A stretch of 64,000 nt of DNA, taken from positions 109,443-173,442 of IMG/VR virus record IMGVR_UViG_2595698871_000001, one strand, 5' to 3'. This document shows, piece after piece, positions 8,576 to 46,801 of the stretch. A program made the position numbers and the translations under genes. Source of the DNA: a virus. Its lineage: Duplodnaviria > Heunggongvirae > Uroviricota > Caudoviricetes. Position 1 is the first letter of the stretch, and each line of letters starts with the position of its first letter. Below the pieces are notes generated by a model. That model made no database searches and was not told the DNA's origin. It saw nothing but the letters and a program-made list of their open reading frames with translations.

Positions 8576-8639
8576 TTGACACCTGTCGGGAAAGGGGGCT
8601 AGATGACCCCCGCCTTTCACCCCCGTCCCGACAGGCTTC
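8576..8639 (+). promoter_or_regulatory. promoter (TTGACA-N17-CTAGAT) overlapped by a 10-bp inverted repeat (putative operator) upstream of the primase gene
   Basis: TTGACA 8576-8581, CTAGAT 8599-8604; inverted repeat CCTGTCGGGA (8582-8591) / TCCCGACAGG (8626-8635) flanking a GGGGG..CCCCC core. Confidence 0.4.
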
Positions 8640-14427: not shown

Positions 14428-14748
14428 CTACCGGCGCTGCGCCGGCGGATCGCCATAGATGACGGGGTAGTGGGCGCGCACGTCAGGCGGCGTGAAGTCG
14501 CCCCCGTCCTTGACGCACTCGCGCGCCCGCATGACGGTGTGGTCGTAGAGGGTCAGAAGCTCCTCGCGCGTCAGCGCCATCAGGGCGTTGGTGAACCAGA
14601 CGCGCTGGGAGCCGTGGACCTCGGTCGGCTCGTAAGGCAGCGGCGCGGTCAAGAACACCTGATGCGCGCGGTTCTCACGCCAGTTGGCGATCTTGAGCGC
14701 CCGCTGGAGGAGGCCCATGGGGTTGACGTCTTCGTTAGGCGGCTTCAT
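14428..14748 (-). CDS. hypothetical protein (106 aa)
   Basis: Start at the internal Met (MKPPNEDV) with an aagagga RBS; upstream ORF extension is shadow. Confidence 0.5.
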   Translation of the reverse strand: MKPPNEDVNPMGLLQRALKIANWRENRAHQVFLTAPLPYEPTEVHGSQRVWFTNALMALTREELLTLYDHTVMRARECVKDGGDFTPPDVRAHYPVIYGDPPAQRR

Positions 14749-15808
14749 CGTCGGTGTCCTCTTGCTTGGCCAGCCAGTCGGCGTAGAGCGCCTCCAGGAC
14801 CTTGACGCGGGCGCCGTCCATGTCGGACGGATCACGCAGGCCCTCGAACACCCCGTGGCGCGGCAGGTCGTAGTCGCCGGCCAGGGCGTAGCTCATCTTG
14901 ACGAACTGACCCACCGGCGGGTTGACGAAGTAGTCGGCCTTGGTCTTGTCGTTGAGGCCCGAGGCGATCCGCGCCACCTTGCCCGGCCATTCGGGGAAGA
15001 TCACCAGCAGCTTGCCGGCGCGGCCCTTGGCGGCCTTGTTCGCCTTGTGGGTCGAGCGCTTGGTGTAGCCGCGCTCGTCGAGCGTCGCCTCGTTGTTGTT
15101 GGCGAACTCCTCCTCGACGCCGATGCAGACGCCCTCCAGGTCGGCCTTGTCCTTGGCCTTGACGTTGTAGCCCTCCAGGACCGTCGAGCGGCCGGGCTTG
15201 TAGGGGCCGTCGATCGCGCAGAAGATCAGGCCCTCGTCCTCGTTCTCCAGCGCCTCCAGGTACATGGCCAGCGCCTCCTCGGCGTTGCGAAGCAGGCGCT
15301 GCTCCAGGACCACTACCCACGACGGCAGGGACAGTTCCAGGGCCTTGAGCGCGGCGAGGCGCTCGGCCTTGCCGCCCGGCGCCAGGAAGTGCTCGAAGAC
15401 ATAGTAGCGGATGTCGGGCTCGCCCTCATGGGTCATCACCGCCGAGGTCGAGCCCCGGAAGTTCAGCTTGCCATCGGTCAGGATGCCGATCTCGCCGTCC
15501 AGGCCGTGCGGCAGCGTCGACAGCAGCTTGCGCACGTGCAGGTTCGGGATGTACTTCAGCGACCGGGTGATGCCGTGGCCGATCGTGTCGCGCTCGTTGG
15601 TCACCCAGCCGGCCTCGGTGTGGGTGATCGCCGCCTCGATCCTGTCGGGATGCACCGGCGAGACGCTGGCCCGGACCCCGTCCTTTTTGAAGGACCCGTA
15701 GCAGGGGAACGTGATCCGCGTGGCGAACTCGCTGGGCTTGACCGAGTCGGTGTCGGCTAGGGCGATACGGAAGCGCTTGTAAAGCTTGGGCTTCTTGATC
15801 TTGCTCAT
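14735..15808 (-). CDS. ATP-dependent DNA (or RNA) ligase, KxDG nucleotidyltransferase family
   Basis: Motif I SFKKDGVRAS (KxDGxR), LDGEIGIL (III), EGLIFCAIDGPYKPGRS (IV), KAKDKADLEGVCIG (V); 357 aa; gagggga RBS. Confidence 0.7.
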   Translation of the reverse strand: MSKIKKPKLYKRFRIALADTDSVKPSEFATRITFPCYGSFKKDGVRASVSPVHPDRIEAAITHTEAGWVTNERDTIGHGITRSLKYIPNLHVRKLLSTLPHGLDGEIGILTDGKLNFRGSTSAVMTHEGEPDIRYYVFEHFLAPGGKAERLAALKALELSLPSWVVVLEQRLLRNAEEALAMYLEALENEDEGLIFCAIDGPYKPGRSTVLEGYNVKAKDKADLEGVCIGVEEEFANNNEATLDERGYTKRSTHKANKAAKGRAGKLLVIFPEWPGKVARIASGLNDKTKADYFVNPPVGQFVKMSYALAGDYDLPRHGVFEGLRDPSDMDGARVKVLEALYADWLAKQEDTDDEAA

Positions 15809-16266
15809 CTCAATTTCCCCTCGATCAACTTGAGGCCGGGCTGGTCCCGGTCCATCTGGTAGACGGTGTAGCGATCGCCGTCGAACTCGACGCTGTAGAC
15901 CCGGATGCCGGCGTTGAGGCACTGCATCCACATGTCGCGCGTGCCCGGCCCGCCGGGAAACGCCACGCAGACGTCGGGCTGGCTGGTCTCACGCATGCGG
16001 GTGTTGCGCCGCTTGGGCGCATCGTCGCCCTCGCCGTCGAGCGCCGGGTCGACCTTGTAGACCTCGGTGGCGAACCCCCACTTCGCGGCCCAGGCGCGGC
16101 AGAGCCGGTCATAGCCCACCGCGTCGCCGTCGACCCAGATCATGTCGCGCGGCCAGCGCAGCGCCGAGACCAGGGCGGACAGCACAAGGGTGGGCGCGAT
16201 CTCGACGACGCCGACCCGGCCGCCGCAGACCACCGCGACGAAAGGACGTTCAGCTTCAGGCGTCAT
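15805..16266 (-). CDS. hypothetical protein, possible SLOG/LOG-like Rossmann domain
   Basis: VAVVCGGRVGV...VCVAFPGGPGTRDM resembles the GGxGT motif of LOG/YspA-type domains; start at the internal Met (MTPEAERPF) overlapping the upstream stop. Confidence 0.45.
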   Translation of the reverse strand: MTPEAERPFVAVVCGGRVGVVEIAPTLVLSALVSALRWPRDMIWVDGDAVGYDRLCRAWAAKWGFATEVYKVDPALDGEGDDAPKRRNTRMRETSQPDVCVAFPGGPGTRDMWMQCLNAGIRVYSVEFDGDRYTVYQMDRDQPGLKLIEGKLR

Positions 16267-19090: not shown

Positions 19091-19369
19091 CTAGGATCGC
19101 GGCGCTACGTCGTCAACCTCAAGCAGGGCCTTTTGAGCCAGGGCGCGGTTGTACTCCAGGAGCTTGCGAAGAGCCTTGCGGTCTCCTTCAGCCATGGCGT
19201 AGAGCCGCACCACGTCGTCGAAGTCGAACTCGTTGACGAGGTCGCGTAGGTCCTGGTCCATCCTGTCGATGGTCCGAAACAGGCGCTCGCGGTACTGGCG
19301 GCGCTCACGCTGGCGGCGGCGGGCGACGAGGGTGCCGATCCGCTGCCGCACGCGACGATGGCGCAGCAT
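19091..19369 (-). CDS. hypothetical protein (92 aa, Arg-rich N-terminus)
   Basis: ORF with good codon usage; ATG overlaps the upstream TGA. Confidence 0.5.
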   Translation of the reverse strand: MLRHRRVRQRIGTLVARRRQRERRQYRERLFRTIDRMDQDLRDLVNEFDFDDVVRLYAMAEGDRKALRKLLEYNRALAQKALLEVDDVAPRS

Positions 19370-19881
19370 CAGAGCGGCTTAGGCGCGTGCCAGTCCTCGC
19401 GGTCGTCGGCATAGAGCACCGACGCCAGCGGCCCGGTCCCGATGTCGCACTTGGCGGCGATCCCCACCGCCTGGGCGGCCGTGGCGCCCATGTGAAGCGC
19501 TCCCAGGGCCGACCACGTACCCGAGCCGAAGGCGTAGAAGGGCGCGCGCATCACATAGGCCGGCGCGCCGCTCTCGAACCGCAGGCAGGAGCCATCGGGG
19601 AGGATGACGTAACCGTTGGTCTCCTTGTCGGGCTTCTCGGGGCGGCCCATGTCGCAGTACGGCCCCTTGCCGCCATCCGCCAGCCACTCATCGAACTTCT
19701 CGGACTTGACCCAGTCGAGGAAGATTTGGACGTAGGACGACTCGCCCGCCGCACCGAAGAGCAGCGTGCCGCCCGGCCCGGTGCGCTTGCCGATCTTGGG
19801 AACGTCCCCGCAGGGGGTCCACAGGTCCAGCACCCGCGCATCGGCGGCCAGGGCGCCGTCTCGATAGACGATACACGTCAT
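19369..19881 (-). CDS. HslV/proteasome-beta-like Ntn-hydrolase peptidase
   Basis: Met-Thr-Cys N-terminus (nucleophile at position 2); YAFGSGTWSALGALHMGATAAQAV resembles the GSG...A.GA block of HslV/proteasome beta subunits; 170 aa; aggag RBS. Confidence 0.5.
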   Translation of the reverse strand: MTCIVYRDGALAADARVLDLWTPCGDVPKIGKRTGPGGTLLFGAAGESSYVQIFLDWVKSEKFDEWLADGGKGPYCDMGRPEKPDKETNGYVILPDGSCLRFESGAPAYVMRAPFYAFGSGTWSALGALHMGATAAQAVGIAAKCDIGTGPLASVLYADDREDWHAPKPL

Positions 19882-21164: not shown

Positions 21165-21622
21165 TGGCAGACCTTCACGGGGTCGACGGCCGCGACCGGC
21201 GACATGTAGGTGTCGGGGTCCCAGGCGCCGGGGACGTTGCCGCCCTCGATGTACTGGTAGTCCGGCGACGGCGGCCTCATCGAGCCGCCGTTGCTGGCGA
21301 CCTTGCCCGGATTGGGATAGGCCGATAGCCACAGGCGCCCGTCGGTGCCGCGCAGGACAAATTGCCCGCTCTGGCGGCAGACCTTGGCGATCTGCATCCG
21401 CCATGCGTAGTTGAGCTTGCGCTTCTTGGCGGCCTCGTCGCGCAGCCACTGCTCATGGCCCATCCGCGCCCACCGAGCCCTCTTGGCGACGAGGGCCTTG
21501 TGCTCGGGCGACCAGCGCAGGTTCTGCTCCTCGTCGAACGACACCGACACCGTCACCAGCAAGAGGAGGACCAGGACACCAAGCACCGGGAGCCAGAAGA
21601 GCGGATCACGCAGGCGAGACAT
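21161..21622 (-). CDS. membrane-anchored hypothetical protein (N-terminal TM helix)
   Basis: LFWLPVLGVLVLLLLVTVSV hydrophobic segment; ATGA overlap with nadV. Confidence 0.5.
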   Translation of the reverse strand: MSRLRDPLFWLPVLGVLVLLLLVTVSVSFDEEQNLRWSPEHKALVAKRARWARMGHEQWLRDEAAKKRKLNYAWRMQIAKVCRQSGQFVLRGTDGRLWLSAYPNPGKVASNGGSMRPPSPDYQYIEGGNVPGAWDPDTYMSPVAAVDPVKVCQ

Positions 21623-23079
21623 CAGGCGGGCTCGTCGACGAAGGCGTAGTCGCCGGTGTCGTAGCCGGCCGCCACGCGCTCGCGGACTTGATCCAGGGTC
21701 GTCGGCTCCAGCACCTTGCCGGTGTTGAAGACCTCGTCGAGCAGGTCGTGCTCAACCACGTCGCCTTCGTGGACCGTGATGGTCTCGAAGCCGCCATGCT
21801 CGTTGGTCACGAGCGCCAGCTTGCCCTTCTTGGACACCTTGCCCGGATCGGTGATCGGGTCCTTGAAGATGTCGACCCACTCGCCGTTGATCTCCTGGGC
21901 CGACGACTTCATCGCCCACTTGTTGGTGTCGCGGTCGAGGTCGCCCGTCGCCAGACCACCGCCGGCCGCCGTCATGATGCTGTCGGGCGCGATGCCCAGG
22001 TCCCGGCCCAGGTAGAACGGGTCCATGTGGGTGTGCTCGTTCATGCCGTCGCCCTGGAGGACCTTGACGTTCATGTTGATGACGTCCAGGCCCTTGCTGT
22101 TGCGCTGGGTGCCGAACCCGTCCGCCAGGGTCTTGAGGACCGGCGGGATCACCTCGCCCAGGCGCCCGCTGTCGGGGCGGCAGACGATGGTCAGGTTCTT
22201 GTTGGCGATCAGGTCCTTGTACTTCACGAGCTTCTTGGCGAACTCGAAGATGTTCCAGGTGTCGCCGACCAGCGAGACGATCGAGCCCACCGGCGCGCGC
22301 GTCAGGCAGTGCAGGATGTACTCGTCGTCGTTGTCGCGCCCGAACGAGCACGAGATCGAGTGCTCGGTGGCCAGCACCGAATAGGCCGACATCTCGCTGA
22401 AGTAGTTGATGTTCGCCGCGCGCACGCCGGGCACGTTGTCCGAGCCCTGGAAGTGGAAGAGGTGAGCGATGCCGGCCAGGACCGAATGGTCATAGCCCAT
22501 GGTGCCGCGCGAGGAGAAGTCCAGGAAGGCGAACGGCGACATCGGGGTGTCGCTGGTCAGTTCCCAGAAAATCTTGATCGACTGGGCGATCTTGTTGACG
22601 CGGGCGGCGATCGTCGAGGCCGTCCAGACATCGCGCAGGATCATGGTCTCGAAGTACGAGGTCAGCCAGGGCAGGCGCGGGTCGAGGTTCTCGACGCTGA
22701 TCAGCGCGTTCTTGACCGGGATCATCATGCCCTCGGGCACGGCCTTGATCCGCAGCGGCAGGTAGCCGCCGTACTCGTTCAGGATGATCTCCCAGCCGTC
22801 ACGGTTGAACGGCAGGCCATGGGCCGGCACGAACGCGGCCATCTCTTCGATGTCGGCGCGGGTGATCGGCTTGCAGAGCTTCTGGAAGAGCAGGCGCTGG
22901 AACGCGGCCAGCATCACCTTGGGGTAACGCCCGCCCCGGCTCTCGATGTAGCTGTAGACGGTGGTGCAGCCGTCGCGATAGAGCACCCAGTGACCCAGCT
23001 TGTAGCTGTCGGTGTCGGCGATCAGGTTGTAGGTCTCGACGGGGGCGACCCCGTCCCAGTTGGCGATGTCGAAGGCCAT
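21622..23079 (-). CDS. nadV: nicotinamide phosphoribosyltransferase (NadV/NAMPT)
   Basis: N-terminal YNLIADTDSYKLGHW (DSYK signature); about 485 aa, typical for NAMPT; aagggga RBS. Confidence 0.85.
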   Translation of the reverse strand: MAFDIANWDGVAPVETYNLIADTDSYKLGHWVLYRDGCTTVYSYIESRGGRYPKVMLAAFQRLLFQKLCKPITRADIEEMAAFVPAHGLPFNRDGWEIILNEYGGYLPLRIKAVPEGMMIPVKNALISVENLDPRLPWLTSYFETMILRDVWTASTIAARVNKIAQSIKIFWELTSDTPMSPFAFLDFSSRGTMGYDHSVLAGIAHLFHFQGSDNVPGVRAANINYFSEMSAYSVLATEHSISCSFGRDNDDEYILHCLTRAPVGSIVSLVGDTWNIFEFAKKLVKYKDLIANKNLTIVCRPDSGRLGEVIPPVLKTLADGFGTQRNSKGLDVINMNVKVLQGDGMNEHTHMDPFYLGRDLGIAPDSIMTAAGGGLATGDLDRDTNKWAMKSSAQEINGEWVDIFKDPITDPGKVSKKGKLALVTNEHGGFETITVHEGDVVEHDLLDEVFNTGKVLEPTTLDQVRERVAAGYDTGDYAFVDEPA

Positions 23080-23090
23080 GAGGTTCCCCT

Positions 23091-24329
23091 TTAAGCGTTG
23101 AGGCTAAGCATGCGGTCCACGATGAAGGCGTGGTCCTCGAAGGTGTTGGACGGGTCGATCTCGGAGATCGGGTCCCAGTCGGCGGCGGCGGCGTCGTCGT
23201 GCCCCTTGACCACCGGCAGGCTCAGGCCCAGAGCCGGCGGCGGGATGACGAAGTGGTAGGCGGTCGAGATGATGTGGGCGCGCCGCGAGCGGTGCGGATC
23301 GTCGAAGACCTGAGGCTCGCCCACCAGGAAGCGGCGAAGCTCCTCCATGGCCTTGAGCACGTAGCCCGGCGCGGCCGGCGGACGCAGGCCCAGCTTCTCG
23401 GCCTGCTTGCAGGCGGCGAGCCAGTGGACGAAGTTGTAGTAGTCGCGCTCGGAGATGAACAGCGCGGTCTCTTCGATGATCTCGCGCAGGCAGTTGGCCA
23501 GCAGCGAGGAGCCCGCGTTGACGAAGCCGCCGGGCAGGGCCTTCATGCCCAGGCCCTCGGCGCCGCCGCGCTCGATCCGCAGGATGTGGCCGGCGCACTC
23601 GACGACGCCGTCGACGGCCAGGAACGGACCCGGCCCCCAGCGCTCGCGGTAGGCGTCCTCGGCCTTCTTCTGGGCGAGCAGGTAGGCGTAGACCTGCTTG
23701 TCGCGGAACCGCTCCAGGAAGTCGATGGTGCTCGGGTAGAGCAGATCGCTCCAGGCGTAGCCCCGGTCGCTCCAGGAAGTGTCGCGGAAGTTGACCCCGC
23801 CAGCGAAATAGGCTTGGCGCAGGGCCGTGGCGTTGACGCCGTTGTCCTCGACCGGCGTGTAGGGCCACTGCGGGAACCACGTCAGGTATTCGCTGGTGGC
23901 GTCGCGGACGTTGCCGATCAGGGTGACGCGCGGGCGCAGGACCTTGGTGGCGTTCTTGACGTGCTGCTGGACCTGGGCGATCCACTCGTTCTTGCCGAAC
24001 GGGCCGGTGTCGTTGAGCGCGATGACCTCGGTGTTGGAGATGTGCTCCAGGACGCGGGCGCCGGTGACCTCGACATCGACGTACTCGCCGCTGAAGTCGG
24101 CCGCGATCTCCTCGGCGGCCAGATCACTGATCCCGTCCAGGATCATCGCCTTGCGCTCCTCGAACAGGAACGGGTTGCGGGTGTCGCGGGCGAGGTTGGC
24201 CGAGCCGATGAACCAGAGGACCTTGCGGGCCTTCTTGCGCGCGGCCTGATACAGGCGGAAGTGGCCGAGCTTGGTCGGCATTTGCGCCCGCGTGATCAGC
24301 ACCGCGATGTCGTACTCGAAATCCACCAT
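23091..24329 (-). CDS. natV: bifunctional NMN adenylyltransferase / Nudix hydrolase (NatV-like)
   Basis: N-terminal nucleotidyltransferase motif DIAVLITRAQMPTKLGH ((H/T)xGH-like); C-terminal Nudix box GGFVNAGSSLLANCLREIIEETAL (Gx5Ex7REUxEExGU); ATG 24329 overlaps the upstream TGA. Confidence 0.8.
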   Translation of the reverse strand: MVDFEYDIAVLITRAQMPTKLGHFRLYQAARKKARKVLWFIGSANLARDTRNPFLFEERKAMILDGISDLAAEEIAADFSGEYVDVEVTGARVLEHISNTEVIALNDTGPFGKNEWIAQVQQHVKNATKVLRPRVTLIGNVRDATSEYLTWFPQWPYTPVEDNGVNATALRQAYFAGGVNFRDTSWSDRGYAWSDLLYPSTIDFLERFRDKQVYAYLLAQKKAEDAYRERWGPGPFLAVDGVVECAGHILRIERGGAEGLGMKALPGGFVNAGSSLLANCLREIIEETALFISERDYYNFVHWLAACKQAEKLGLRPPAAPGYVLKAMEELRRFLVGEPQVFDDPHRSRRAHIISTAYHFVIPPPALGLSLPVVKGHDDAAAADWDPISEIDPSNTFEDHAFIVDRMLSLNA

Positions 24330-24754
24330 CACCTCCTAAAGGCCGGGCGGATGCGCCGGGCCGGCTTGTTCTCGGTCAATTCCCGCCCGCTGAAGGACGG
24401 GAAGGAAAGCTCGCTGATGCCGTTCTGCCGTATGGCGAACTGGCGCTTCTTGGTGTCGATCCCGTCCAGGTGCGTGCTGCGCCGCCGCTCGATCAGTTCG
24501 AGGTCGACGACGTCGCCAAACACCTTGCCGTGGAAAATCTGCCGCCGCGCCCAGGTGATGGCCGATCCCAGGTGCTCGAACGCCCTGGTCTTCTCGGCCT
24601 CCTGGAGGCTGGCGCCGTCGTGGAAGGACGGGTCCACCCACGACAGCTTGATTTCCCGCGCCGGGAGCGTCTTCACCAGGACGTTGATGGCCTCGTGCCC
24701 GTAGCGCTGGGCGAAGTCGCCCACGTCGTAGCTTTCGATGTCCAGCACCATCAT
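24329..24754 (-). CDS. hypothetical protein (about 141 aa)
   Basis: Start taken at ATG 24754 because the upstream GTG lies inside the promoter -10; ATGA overlap with natV. Confidence 0.45.
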   Translation of the reverse strand: MMVLDIESYDVGDFAQRYGHEAINVLVKTLPAREIKLSWVDPSFHDGASLQEAEKTRAFEHLGSAITWARRQIFHGKVFGDVVDLELIERRRSTHLDGIDTKKRQFAIRQNGISELSFPSFSGRELTENKPARRIRPAFRR

Positions 24755-24779
24755 GGTGATCGGCTTGGTCGTTAGGGAC

Positions 24780-24815
24780 GACACTATCGATTTCCCTCCG
24801 GCTTTGTCAACGCTT
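24780..24815 (-). promoter_or_regulatory. promoter-like element (gcgTTGACAaagccggagggaaatcgATAGTG)
   Basis: TTGACA (reverse complement of 24806-24811) and a -10-like ATAGTG 17 nt downstream; lies between the PTH2 stop and the next gene. Confidence 0.4.
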
Positions 24816-25291
24816 TAACGCAGGAGCTTCAGCGACGAGGGGGCGTGGTATTTGAACGCCGCCTCGGTGATCGGCCCGATCCCCACGAAGGTCACGGTCG
24901 GCTTCTCGAAGACGGTGCGCCCGGCGTCGACGACCAGGGTCGCGCCGGCATACTCCCGGAAGCGCTCGTAGAGGGCTTCCAGTTCTTCGTTGGTGCCGGT
25001 GTGGAGCGCGATCTTCGCCGCCGACTGCGAGTAGCGGTACTGGCGCGCGGTCTTGGGGAAGCGCTCCATGGCGTCCCACCACGCATGCAGGTAGGCGTGG
25101 CCAGCCTGGGCGGAGAGCTTGCCGATGTTGAGGGACTTGTCCTCGGGCTTGCGGCTGCGCTTGGCCACGGTCATCGCGTCGAGCGCTTCCTGGCTGACGA
25201 TGGCGTAGAGGCGCAGTTCAGCCTTGGACTTGCCGGCGAAGCACGCCATCACGAGGTCCCAGGCGTGCAACCAGCTTTCGAAGAATTTCAT
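24815..25291 (-). CDS. peptidyl-tRNA hydrolase, PTH2 (archaeal/eukaryotic) type
   Basis: GKLSAQAGHA (cf. GKVAAQCSHA of human PTRH2) and LVVDAGRTVFEKPTVTFVGIGP (cf. [21 protein letters not shown]); C-terminal SLKLL. Confidence 0.7.
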   Translation of the reverse strand: MKFFESWLHAWDLVMACFAGKSKAELRLYAIVSQEALDAMTVAKRSRKPEDKSLNIGKLSAQAGHAYLHAWWDAMERFPKTARQYRYSQSAAKIALHTGTNEELEALYERFREYAGATLVVDAGRTVFEKPTVTFVGIGPITEAAFKYHAPSSLKLLR

Positions 25292-29936: not shown

Positions 29937-31169
29937 CTAGCCCTTCACGCAGAGGACTTGCTTCAGGGTGTGGACGATGTCCACGAGGTCCTTCTGCGCC
30001 TCCATGACCGCGTCGATGTCCTTGTAGGCCATCGGGATTTCGTCGATCACGCCGATGTCCTTGCGGCACTCGACGCCTTCGGTCGCCTTGATCTGGTCTT
30101 CCAGCGTGAAGGCGGCCTTGGCGGCGGTGCGCGACATGGTCCGCCCCGCGCCGTGCGAGCACGAGCAGAACGAGTCGGCGTTGCCCTTGCCGCGCACGAT
30201 GTAGGACTTGGCCCCCATCGAGCCGGGGATGATGCCGAACTGGTCCTTCTGAGCCGACACCGCGCCCTTGCGGGTCACGAAGACCCACTCGTCGAAGTGG
30301 AACTCCTTCTGGACGTAGTTGTGGTGGCAGTTCACCGCTTCCTTGTCCGTCTTGAAGGGCGGCAGGCCCGAGGCGCGCATGGCGTCCAGGACCCGGATCA
30401 TCATCATCTCGCGGTTGATCCGCGCGAAGTCCTGACCCCAGGCGACGGCTTCCACGTAGTCGTAGAATTCCGGCTCGCCTTCCGACAGCCACGCGAGGTC
30501 CTTGTCGAGCGGCTTCTGACCGTCCCGACGCAGCATCATCTCCTTGGCCTTCTCGATGAAGATACGGCCGATGGTGTTGCCGACGCCGCGCGAGCCCGAG
30601 TGGAGCATCACCCAGACGCGCTGGTCCTCGTCGAGGCAGACCTCGATGAAGTGGTTGCCGCCGCCCAGCGTGCCCAGTTGGACGACGCTGTTGGCGTTCT
30701 TGAGGGTCTTGTACTTGTCGCAGAGCTTCTCGAACCGGGCTTCCAGGCCCGAGTCGACCCACTTGCGCATGATCGAGTTCGGGATGCCGCTACGCCCGTT
30801 CCAGCCGCCCGACGGACCCGGCCCGCCGTGCGGGACGGCGTGCTCGATCAGCGAGCGCAGCTTGGCGAGGCTGTCGGGCAGGTCCGAGGCCTTCAGCGAG
30901 GTGCGCACGGCCATCATGCCGCAGCCGATGTCCACGCCCACGGCCGCCGGGATGATGGCGCCCTTGGTCGGGATCACCGAGCCCACGGTCGAGCCGATGC
31001 CCATGTGGACGTCCGGCATCAGGGCCACATGCGAGTGGATGAACGGCAGGGCGGCGAGGTTGTGCGCCTGCACCTGGGCGGGCTGCTCGAAGGTCACACC
31101 CCGGACCCAGGCCTTGATCACCCCGCCGTTCCAGCCGGTGATCTCTTCGTATTGGGTCTCGGCGGTCAT
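29937..31169 (-). CDS. rtcB: RtcB RNA 3'-phosphate/2',3'-cyclic-phosphate – 5'-OH ligase
   Basis: Hallmark blocks GGGNHFIE, HSGSRGVGN, CHHNY, SCSHGAGR; 410 aa; gaggag RBS. Confidence 0.9.
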   Translation of the reverse strand: MTAETQYEEITGWNGGVIKAWVRGVTFEQPAQVQAHNLAALPFIHSHVALMPDVHMGIGSTVGSVIPTKGAIIPAAVGVDIGCGMMAVRTSLKASDLPDSLAKLRSLIEHAVPHGGPGPSGGWNGRSGIPNSIMRKWVDSGLEARFEKLCDKYKTLKNANSVVQLGTLGGGNHFIEVCLDEDQRVWVMLHSGSRGVGNTIGRIFIEKAKEMMLRRDGQKPLDKDLAWLSEGEPEFYDYVEAVAWGQDFARINREMMMIRVLDAMRASGLPPFKTDKEAVNCHHNYVQKEFHFDEWVFVTRKGAVSAQKDQFGIIPGSMGAKSYIVRGKGNADSFCSCSHGAGRTMSRTAAKAAFTLEDQIKATEGVECRKDIGVIDEIPMAYKDIDAVMEAQKDLVDIVHTLKQVLCVKG

Positions 31170-35199: not shown

Positions 35200-35280
35200 G
35201 GCGGGTCTCCATCAGCAGGTGATGGAGCCCTTCTAGGCCCTCTCGACCTAGCCTGTCAACACTCTCGCGCCAACAAAATG
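35200..35280 (-). promoter_or_regulatory. consensus promoter/leader element
   Basis: Reverse complement reads ttGTTGGCGCGAGAGTGTTGACAGGctaggtcgagagggcCTAGAAGGGCtccatcacctgctgatGGAGAcccgcGTG. Confidence 0.55.
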
Positions 35281-46229: not shown

Positions 46230-46801
46230 CAAGCCGTGATCTCCTCGAAGCGGCCGTCCATGAACTCGGCCTCGCGCCGGCCCCAGACCTGCCCGCCGCC
46301 GTCGATGTAGCTCAGCAGGGTCTCGTCGTCCTGGATCGGGGTCTCGCACTGGATGCGGATGGTCCCCACCACGGCATAATCGGAGCCCCGCTTCTTGTGG
46401 CGGAACCGGCGCATGCCGCGCGGCAGTTCGGCCAGGAAGGCTTTCAGGGCGTCGGCCATCTTGGCGACGCCATGCGGGAAGTGCGAGCCCGGCCCCCGAA
46501 CCCATTGATAGACCGTCGCCAGGGCAAAGCGCCCGGCGGCGATCTCGCCGGTCGGGTCCTTGCGGAGCCGATCGGGCGCGTGATCTTCGAGGTAGTTGGT
46601 CCCCAGGAGCGCCATCATGTGGGCCTCGTCGACCGTGGTCGGAACCCTCAGGAAACCCTCGGGCGTCGCGCCGTCGAGCGCTTTGATCGCGCCCAGCAGG
46701 ACCGCCGCCTTTTCCGTATGCCACTCACGCCCGCCCGGCTCGGGCGAGTGTGCGGCATGATAGAGGTGGTAGTCCATGATTTCGTGCAGGGCTTCGCTCA
46801 T
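46229..46801 (-). CDS. hypothetical protein (190 aa)
   Basis: ggaagg RBS; first gene after the promoter. Confidence 0.5.
   Translation of the reverse strand: MSEALHEIMDYHLYHAAHSPEPGGREWHTEKAAVLLGAIKALDGATPEGFLRVPTTVDEAHMMALLGTNYLEDHAPDRLRKDPTGEIAAGRFALATVYQWVRGPGSHFPHGVAKMADALKAFLAELPRGMRRFRHKKRGSDYAVVGTIRIQCETPIQDDETLLSYIDGGGQVWGRREAEFMDGRFEEITA

Follow-up and report, generated by a model that had tools for sequence, protein, structure and literature searches.

Why should a giant siphophage of Caulobacter carry, side by side, two genes whose products are expected to rebuild NAD+ from nicotinamide? The question is raised by natV and nadV, which lie on a 64,000-nucleotide stretch of viral DNA (positions 109,443 to 173,442 of IMG/VR record IMGVR_UViG_2595698871_000001; the whole stretch is referred to here as the window). 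The 4.5 kb around the two genes is 100% identical to Caulobacter phage CcrRogue (JX100814/NC_019408), a phiCbK-like giant siphophage with a genome of 223.7 kb, and a window coordinate equals the CcrRogue record coordinate minus 109442; the same region is common to 42 Caulobacter and Brevundimonas phage records. An earlier note on this DNA had read the pair as a nicotinamide phosphoribosyltransferase (NAMPT) and a bifunctional nicotinamide mononucleotide (NMN) adenylyltransferase (NMNAT)/Nudix hydrolase, and this reading is borne out by profile searches, matches to solved structures, a confident full-length fold match and an adjacency that is kept in divergent phages. We consider it likely that the locus specifies a NARP2-type pathway in which two enzymes salvage NAD+, and which would keep up NAD+, blunt NAD+-depleting abortive infection and support metabolism. 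The two genes are as follows.

21622 to 23079, minus strand: nadV, encoding a predicted NAMPT of 485 residues (CcrRogue gp159 / D869_gp273)
23091 to 24326, minus strand: natV, encoding a predicted bifunctional NMN adenylyltransferase/Nudix hydrolase of the NadM-Nudix type, 411 residues (gp160 / D869_gp272)

The adjacency described in the earlier note stands, but the order given there, nadV and then natV, is reversed on the coding strand, where natV comes first and is followed by an 11-nt spacer, in which the Shine-Dalgarno sequence AGGGGA lies, and then by nadV. Likewise, the interval that had been assigned to the pair (21622-24329) holds both open reading frames (ORFs) but overruns natV slightly, as the natV start is most likely GTG 24326 and not ATG 24329. 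We place it there because the GTG has an AGGAGG 5 nt upstream, as against only 2 nt for the ATG, because all annotators of the relatives chose the GTG, and because a 63%-identical metagenomic NatV homolog, on a contig here called L007, begins with MDFEFD. In GenBank, nadV is named “putative nicotinate phosphoribosyltransferase” and natV “putative NUDIX hydrolase domain protein”; the RefSeq names are “nicotinamide phosphoribosyl transferase” and “cytidyltransferase,” respectively, and natV orthologs in sister phages are annotated as “bifunctional NMN adenylyltransferase/nudix hydrolase.”

Profile searches, which had been proposed as a check on the family assignments, match both proteins to the predicted families in Pfam, NCBIfam and PHROG. 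NadV consists of an NAMPT_N domain (PF18127, residues 18-111, E = 2.9e-20) followed by a type II phosphoribosyltransferase (NAPRTase) barrel (PF04095, residues 183-453, E = 4.8e-24), and scores 426.6 bits against NCBIfam model NF006629 (PRK09198), above the 405-bit equivalog cut-off and over model positions 5-463 of 465. The match to PHROG 448 is equally clear (E = 9.9e-142), and the closest solved relative is the bacterial NAMPT of PDB entry 7yqo (E = 2e-94), with human NAMPT at about 1e-65. The DSYK signature noted previously is found as TDSYK at residues 23-27. A global alignment with human NAMPT reveals conservation of D24, Y26, F188, R191, D214, H240, R301, D303, D344, G373/G374 and R383, which we take to be the equivalents of the human residues D16, Y18, F193, R196, D219, H247, R311, D313, D354, G383/G384 and R392, respectively. 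Of these, D219 confers nicotinamide specificity, H247 is the site of autophosphorylation, and D16 and Y18 fall within the DSYK signature; the numbering is self-consistent. By all sequence criteria available, NadV is a bona fide NAMPT, with the corresponding activity predicted.

NatV is the more divergent partner. Its best NCBIfam model is NF003786 (E = 2.4e-64), with six sibling NadM-Nudix models also matching; PHROG 395 is matched over the full length (E = 3.4e-76), and the best PDB matches are 2qjo (E = 6.7e-40) and 2qjt (E = 8.7e-28). An AlphaFold model built on an 82-sequence alignment is confident, with a mean predicted local distance difference test score (pLDDT) of 94.7 and a predicted template-modelling score of 0.90, and a Foldseek search with this model returns as top matches three NadM-Nudix crystal structures, each over the full length (≈415 columns). 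The matches to 2r5w and 2qjo reach E values of about 1e-30 and target-normalised template-modelling scores of 0.86-0.89, and isolated Nudix and archaeal NMNAT structures rank far below. The confident model and these full-length matches make membership of the NadM-Nudix fold, as judged from a predicted structure, secure. The parts of NatV discussed below are listed here.

23643 to 24326, minus strand: NMNAT domain, a HIGH-superfamily nucleotidyltransferase domain (residues 1-228), aligning to 2qjo residues 6-65 and 85-175
24261 to 24275, minus strand: noncanonical ATP-binding motif T18-K19-L20-G21-H22 (canonical form H/T-x-G-H)
24027 to 24131, minus strand: hypervariable helical insertion in the NMNAT domain (about residues 66-100), absent from bacterial NadM
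23094 to 23642, minus strand: Nudix hydrolase domain (residues 229-411; Pfam NUDIX, E = 3.5e-5; aligns to 2qjo)
23460 to 23528, minus strand: Nudix box, G267-x5-S273-x7-R281-E282-I-I-E285-E286-T-A-L

The two-domain architecture that the earlier note proposed for NatV therefore stands, but the (H/T)xGH motif needs correction: the actual sequence is T-K-L-G-H, with T or K at the first position and one extra residue, and the Nudix box carries a Ser in place of its first Glu. Relative to the bacterial NadM-Nudix enzymes from Synechocystis (slr0787; 2qjo) and Francisella tularensis (2qjt/2r5w), which work with bacterial NadV, NatV has the same full-length fold and keeps the family-invariant positions, but is only 27-28% identical, falls below the NCBIfam equivalog cut-offs and has ≈70 extra residues in two insertions; the bacterial enzymes also conserve the canonical H-x-G-H and G-x5-E motifs, unlike NatV. 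Because of the two insertions (about residues 66-111 and 292-335), the sequence alignment to 2qjo is split into three pieces. The first is modelled as helices spanning residues 55-77 and 85-97, and the second, a lineage-specific insertion in the Nudix domain, as helices spanning residues 293-311 and 321-331. In the 82-sequence alignment, R13 and R170 of the NMNAT domain are invariant across the family and Q15, G21, H22 and T167 nearly so, with the second nucleotidyltransferase motif (S/N-x-T-x-x-R) present as N165-A-T167-A-L-R170. In the Nudix domain, E282 and E286 are invariant and R281 and E285 nearly invariant; the REUxEE core (REIIEE) is intact, and the final consensus Gly is Ala.

These assignments suggest how the pathway would run. 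NadV would condense nicotinamide with host-made phosphoribosyl pyrophosphate (PRPP) to give NMN, stimulated by ATP via the conserved phospho-histidine H240, and the N-terminal domain of NatV would convert NMN and ATP to NAD+. The Nudix domain would most likely hydrolyze ADP-ribose to AMP and ribose-5-phosphate; ribose-5-phosphate leads on to PRPP, so that nicotinamide and ADP-ribose, the two products that an NADase releases, would both be recyclable. NAD+ kept available during infection in this way would be expected to blunt Thoeris, DSR, SIR2-HerA and SEFIR, and would also support general phage metabolism. The two genes, together with gp161 immediately upstream and gp158 and further genes downstream, probably form a single expression unit that starts from a conserved promoter-like site at 24810-24783. 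We infer all enzymatic activities from homology, and likewise infer the co-transcription of natV and nadV and, by analogy with experiments on the homologs from Vibrio phage KVP40, the counter-defence role. The KVP40 Nampt and Nmnat make NAD+ in vitro, and their genes abolish Thoeris and DSR2 defence and restore NAD+ in infected cells (Osterman et al. 2024, bioRxiv 10.1101/2024.02.11.579819); for KVP40 NARP2 and these two systems, then, the earlier note's statement that phage pathways of this kind have been reported to overcome NAD+-depleting defence is in the literature.

What places the CcrRogue pair with NARP2 is both what it shares with KVP40 and what its genome lacks. The two phages have in common both protein families, a two-domain NatV, a genome without Adps and a predicted route from nicotinamide and PRPP via NMN to NAD+, and the CcrRogue Nampt belongs with that of KVP40 in the “Nmnat-associated” clade: CcrRogue Nampt JX100814_00182 and the phiCbK and CcrSC orthologs carry that label in Table S2 of Osterman et al. 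2024. The CcrRogue NatV differs in its length of 411 residues, its two lineage-specific helical insertions, its TKLGH rather than HxGH motif and the Ser that replaces the first Nudix Glu; furthermore, the CcrRogue host is an alphaproteobacterium, and the virion is that of a siphophage. NARP1 (Adps plus Namat; Osterman et al. 2024) shares with the CcrRogue pathway a Namat homologous to NadV/Nampt and the rebuilding of NAD+ after NADase attack, but it requires the Prs-like Adps and runs via ADP-ribose pyrophosphate (ADPR-PP), and the CcrRogue Nampt belongs to a different clade. Five Adps queries found no Adps or Prs homolog in the whole 223.7-kb CcrRogue genome (best tblastn E = 0.83; best hidden Markov model E = 4.5), and the annotations list none; thus PRPP would come from the host, and a NARP1 reading of the pair is ruled out. 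NARP3, which combines a PnuC-like transporter with a NadR-like RNK-NMNAT (Sci Adv 2026, PMC13464706), has in common with NatV a HIGH-superfamily NMNAT for the last step and the same counter-defence logic, but its route begins with nicotinamide riboside that has been imported, a kinase domain takes the place of the Nudix domain, and no NAMPT is included. PnuC, NadR, and ADP-ribosyltransferase or other NAD+ consumers are all absent from the CcrRogue annotations, and the lack of Adps/Prs, PnuC and NadR makes the predicted pathway NARP2-like rather than NARP1- or NARP3-like.

The natV-nadV arrangement is kept in all phiCbK-like phages examined; three unrelated metagenomic phage contigs, whose NatV and NadV are 45-63% and 52-89% identical to those of CcrRogue, also have natV immediately before nadV on the coding strand, separated by 8-13 nt. 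By pairwise Nei-Gojobori estimates, the ratio of nonsynonymous to synonymous substitution rates (dN/dS) is 0-0.41 for nadV and 0.11-0.61 for natV, and most comparisons fall below 1 for both genes and for both domains of NatV; nadV and natV are under purifying selection. The two NatV insertions behave differently, with ratios near or above 1 (0.16-1.39). NatV consistently diverges faster than NadV: amino acid identity to CcrRogue is 79% for NatV and 87% for NadV in phage Karma, 65% (64.6%) and 89% (88.6%) in L007, and 51% and 67% in L008, a further metagenomic contig.

Several observations weigh against assigning a working NARP2 counter-defence pathway to this locus. The proteins are distant from those of KVP40-like phages, with NatV ≈25% identical to its counterpart in phi-pp2 and NadV ≈33% to that in VH7D. 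NatV scores 217.7 bits against NF003786, for which the cut-off is 397, and stays under the cut-off on all seven PRK05379 models; it is therefore a divergent member of the subfamily and not an equivalog. Its ATP-binding loop, R13-A-Q15-M-P-T18-K-L-G21-H22, compares with R-F-Q-P-F-H-x-G-H in canonical NadM, so that one residue is inserted and the first His is missing. In the FAD synthetase of C. ammoniagenes, a related adenylyltransferase, exchange of either motif His for Ala or Asp abolished activity, and NatV activity is for this reason not to be assumed. The first Glu of the Nudix box, retained in 105 of 118 relatives, is Ser273. Finally, NARP2 raises NAD+ when no defence system is present, and does so at a metabolic cost (Osterman et al. 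2024), which means that selection need not be for counter-defence.

This last point leads to the main rival, in which the reactions are unchanged but selection acts on metabolism, namely on “pyridine nucleotide scavenging” that boosts and recycles the pool so that a 220-kb genome can be replicated in a host that is oligotrophic and grows slowly, for example for NAD(P)H-dependent nucleotide synthesis or for the re-adenylation of NMN released by the NAD+-dependent ligase of the host. CcrRogue does carry a ribonucleotide reductase, a thymidylate synthase, a dNMP kinase and a dUTPase, the pair is found mainly in large phages, and NARP2 elevates NAD+ in defence-free cells, as noted above. The earlier biochemistry on KVP40, by Lee and colleagues in 2017, is likewise said in later papers to have interpreted the pathway metabolically. 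On the other hand, no NAD+ consumer, ADP-ribosyltransferase included, is annotated in the phage, and natV and nadV lie among RNA-repair and alarmone-hydrolase-type genes, outside the nucleotide-metabolism module. An NAD+-dependent phage ligase as the reason for salvage is ruled out, since the OB domain of the CcrRogue ligase is of the ATP type and the ligase ortholog carries an ATP-dependent annotation. Metabolic and counter-defence roles are compatible and not mutually exclusive, and we regard a metabolic role as the selected function as the less probable reading, though one to be taken seriously. The ligase and the neighbours that bear on this question are the following.

14735 to 15808, minus strand: DNA ligase (DNA_ligase_OB_2 match; the RBC8 ortholog is annotated “ATP-dependent DNA ligase”)
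24815 to 25291, minus strand: PTH2-like ORF (PF01981, E = 2e-14), with starts that vary between records, giving 145 to 158 residues
26834 to 27442, minus strand: HD_4/SpoT-hydrolase-like protein (HD_4, E = 9e-9; TIGR00691 positions 4-120)
29937 to 31169, minus strand: RtcB (PF01139, E = 5e-123)

A different view of NatV emerges when CcrRogue is compared with its close relatives RBC8, RBC63 and BL64. Within the 1.24 kb of natV, CcrRogue and RBC8 show 142 differences, as against 10 in nadV and four in the first 21.6 kb of the window, such that natV contributes 22% of all 633 differences across 49 kb. Two alleles, 87% identical in amino acid sequence, are found, one in CcrRogue and BL64 and the other in RBC8 and RBC63; the most divergent piece, 24000-24149, is only 64.7% identical in DNA sequence between CcrRogue and RBC8, with flanks of 100%, and encodes the helical insertion of NatV. 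natV thus looks like an island of recombination or divergence between otherwise near-identical phages, and a dN/dS of 0.31 between the alleles makes the exchange look like recombinational replacement by a divergent but functional allele. The lineage-specific, hypervariable surface helices, the unique T-x-x-G-H motif and degenerate Nudix box, a divergence ≈4-fold faster than that of NadV and the swap of a whole allele between 100% identical flanks would fit a phiCbK-like NatV that takes part in an arms race at the host-phage interface instead of serving as a passive metabolic enzyme, with a host factor that senses, inhibits or targets it or with a shift in its substrate range. We hold this to be unlikely, and the island may be ordinary phage mosaicism, because only one event is seen and because there is a second hot spot. 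This hot spot, a further mosaic patch at 46501-46800 (record 155943-156242) in the hypothetical gene gp222, has 101 differences between CcrRogue and RBC8 in 300 nt; no other stretch in the first 49 kb of the window exceeds natV in divergence.

The unusual motifs also raise the possibility that the adenylyltransferase of the phiCbK-like NatV has been lost or changed, and that the protein acts mainly as a Nudix pyrophosphatase on ADP-ribose or on immune signals or toxins derived from it, with NadV supplying NMN to host enzymes. Among 118 relatives that retain the N terminus, the first motif position is His in 103, Gln in nine and Thr in three, with Lys/Arg found only in phiCbK-like phages; the one-residue insertion is likewise restricted to the phiCbK-like clade, and T-K-L-G-H with the insertion is common to only three of the 118. 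Such a loss would be in keeping with the inactivity of first-His mutants in the related adenylyltransferase and with the ≈4-fold faster divergence of NatV (64.6% versus 88.6% identity to L007 for NatV and NadV, respectively), and the processing of ADP-ribose derivatives by phage Nudix domains has been proposed by Iyer et al. However, NatV keeps the catalytically critical second motif His and the Gly as well as R13, Q15 and the T167/R170 motif, and T-x-G-H is a natural variant of the nucleotidyltransferase motif. The sister lineage L007 has the canonical T-K-G-H, from which the Caulobacter phages seem to have gained one residue within a T-x-G-H motif. In NadD-type enzymes the roles of the two motif His residues vary, with the second critical (H19A retains 0.62% activity). 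Moreover, the NMNAT domain is modelled with a pLDDT of 93-98, its dN/dS of 0.09-0.57 is not above that of the Nudix domain, and the Nudix box is itself slightly degenerate. We therefore judge a Nudix-only NatV to be very improbable. Finally, a pseudogene or decaying domain is ruled out, as no relative has a broken ORF, the structural model is confident and, apart from the two insertions, dN/dS stays under 1.

Returning to the salvage pathway as the favored reading, we turn to how the genes may be expressed and to what surrounds them. The following list gives a site found by a promoter scan, two further copies of its pattern in the window, and gp161.

24783 to 24810, minus strand: promoter-like TTGACA-N16-GATAGT in the 30-nt gap between the PTH2-like ORF and gp161, upstream of gp161-natV-nadV; also the first copy of TTGACA-N18-TAG(T/A)
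8576 to 8603, plus strand: second copy of TTGACA-N18-TAG(T/A)
35232 to 35259, minus strand: third copy of TTGACA-N18-TAG(T/A)
24329 to 24784, minus strand: gp161, a conserved 151-residue protein directly upstream of natV, whose start follows the gp161 stop codon by 2 nt

CcrBL10, RBC8, Karma and Ccr5, which represent two phage genera, all keep the -35 hexamer and TAGTGTCG, making TTGACA-N16-GATAGT a reasonable candidate for the start of the gp161-natV-nadV-gp158 unit. The pattern TTGACA-N18-TAG(T/A) occurs three times in the window versus 0.5 expected, each time in an intergenic position and co-oriented with the downstream gene, and the three sites are candidate phage promoters for a host sigma-70-type polymerase. 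A terminator scan performed no better than shuffled controls (nine sites versus 8.6 expected) and was not used.

gp161 matches PHROG 12373, a family of unknown function, and no Pfam or NCBIfam model; a NADAR, Macro or other ADP-ribose-processing domain had been suspected, but neither database gave a match to one. A word-indexed search returned only two close homologs, partial homologs lie upstream of natV in L007 and L008, and the AlphaFold model is unusable (pLDDT 49). Its true start is probably M11, at 24754, because the metagenomic homolog P0122 and Karma gp166 begin there and because the -10 element overlaps the annotated GTG. Downstream, in the gene string that follows nadV, gp155 (170 residues; 19369-19881, minus strand) matches the PHROG 1040 “peptidase HslV family” (E = 9e-41) and no Pfam family.

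natV-nadV and the genes for PTH2, the HD_4 protein, RtcB and an SLOG-like protein all lie in one 42-kb minus-strand run (record 123870-166173) that otherwise encodes mostly hypothetical proteins. The earlier note had placed the pair in a shared run with RtcB/SAH/PTH2 genes, and RtcB, PTH2 and an HD_4/SpoT-hydrolase-like protein are indeed found there; its description of the run as an anti-defence region stands as an association only. Of RelA/SpoT, the HD protein matches just the hydrolase portion at the N terminus, as would be expected if it were a small alarmone hydrolase. The SLOG-like protein is encoded next to the DNA ligase.

15805 to 16266, minus strand: gp151 / D869_gp281, 153 residues, annotated “GTP-binding domain” and adjoining the DNA ligase gene

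gp151 has a weak, below-cut-off match to the YAcAr/YpsA-related SLOG family PF10686 (E = 7e-5), and its counterpart in L008, likewise beside a DNA ligase, matches equally weakly. As a role in processing ADP-ribose-derived immune signals has been proposed for YpsA-like SLOG domains of viruses, gp151 could be a second NAD+/ADP-ribose-related gene in the same run. As an association, the neighbours of natV-nadV fit the “counter-conflict” gene sets of Iyer et al.

The natV-nadV pair is already known: it is annotated in GenBank and RefSeq, is catalogued in Table S2 of Osterman et al. 2024, was described as a NadV-NadM pair in jumbo phages by Iyer et al. (2021 and 2022), and was noted as the same two genes in a paper on a CbK-like Erythrobacter phage; the phiCbK genomics study of Gill et al. 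2012 discusses neither natV/nadV nor promoters. To our knowledge, the literature has apparently not described the T-x-x-G-H motif, the replacement of Glu by Ser in the Nudix box or the natV divergence island. As the NARP2 principle has been published and the genes catalogued, what is added here for the locus is an accurate annotation and not new biology. An active pathway would let a giant Caulobacter phage keep its NAD+ in the face of starvation imposed by the host, which is among the commonest strategies of abortive infection. phiCbK-like phages and C. crescentus thus offer a tractable alphaproteobacterial model for NARP2 in a native host, and for the unusual features of NatV, namely its ATP-binding motif, its hypervariable insertion and its allele swapping.

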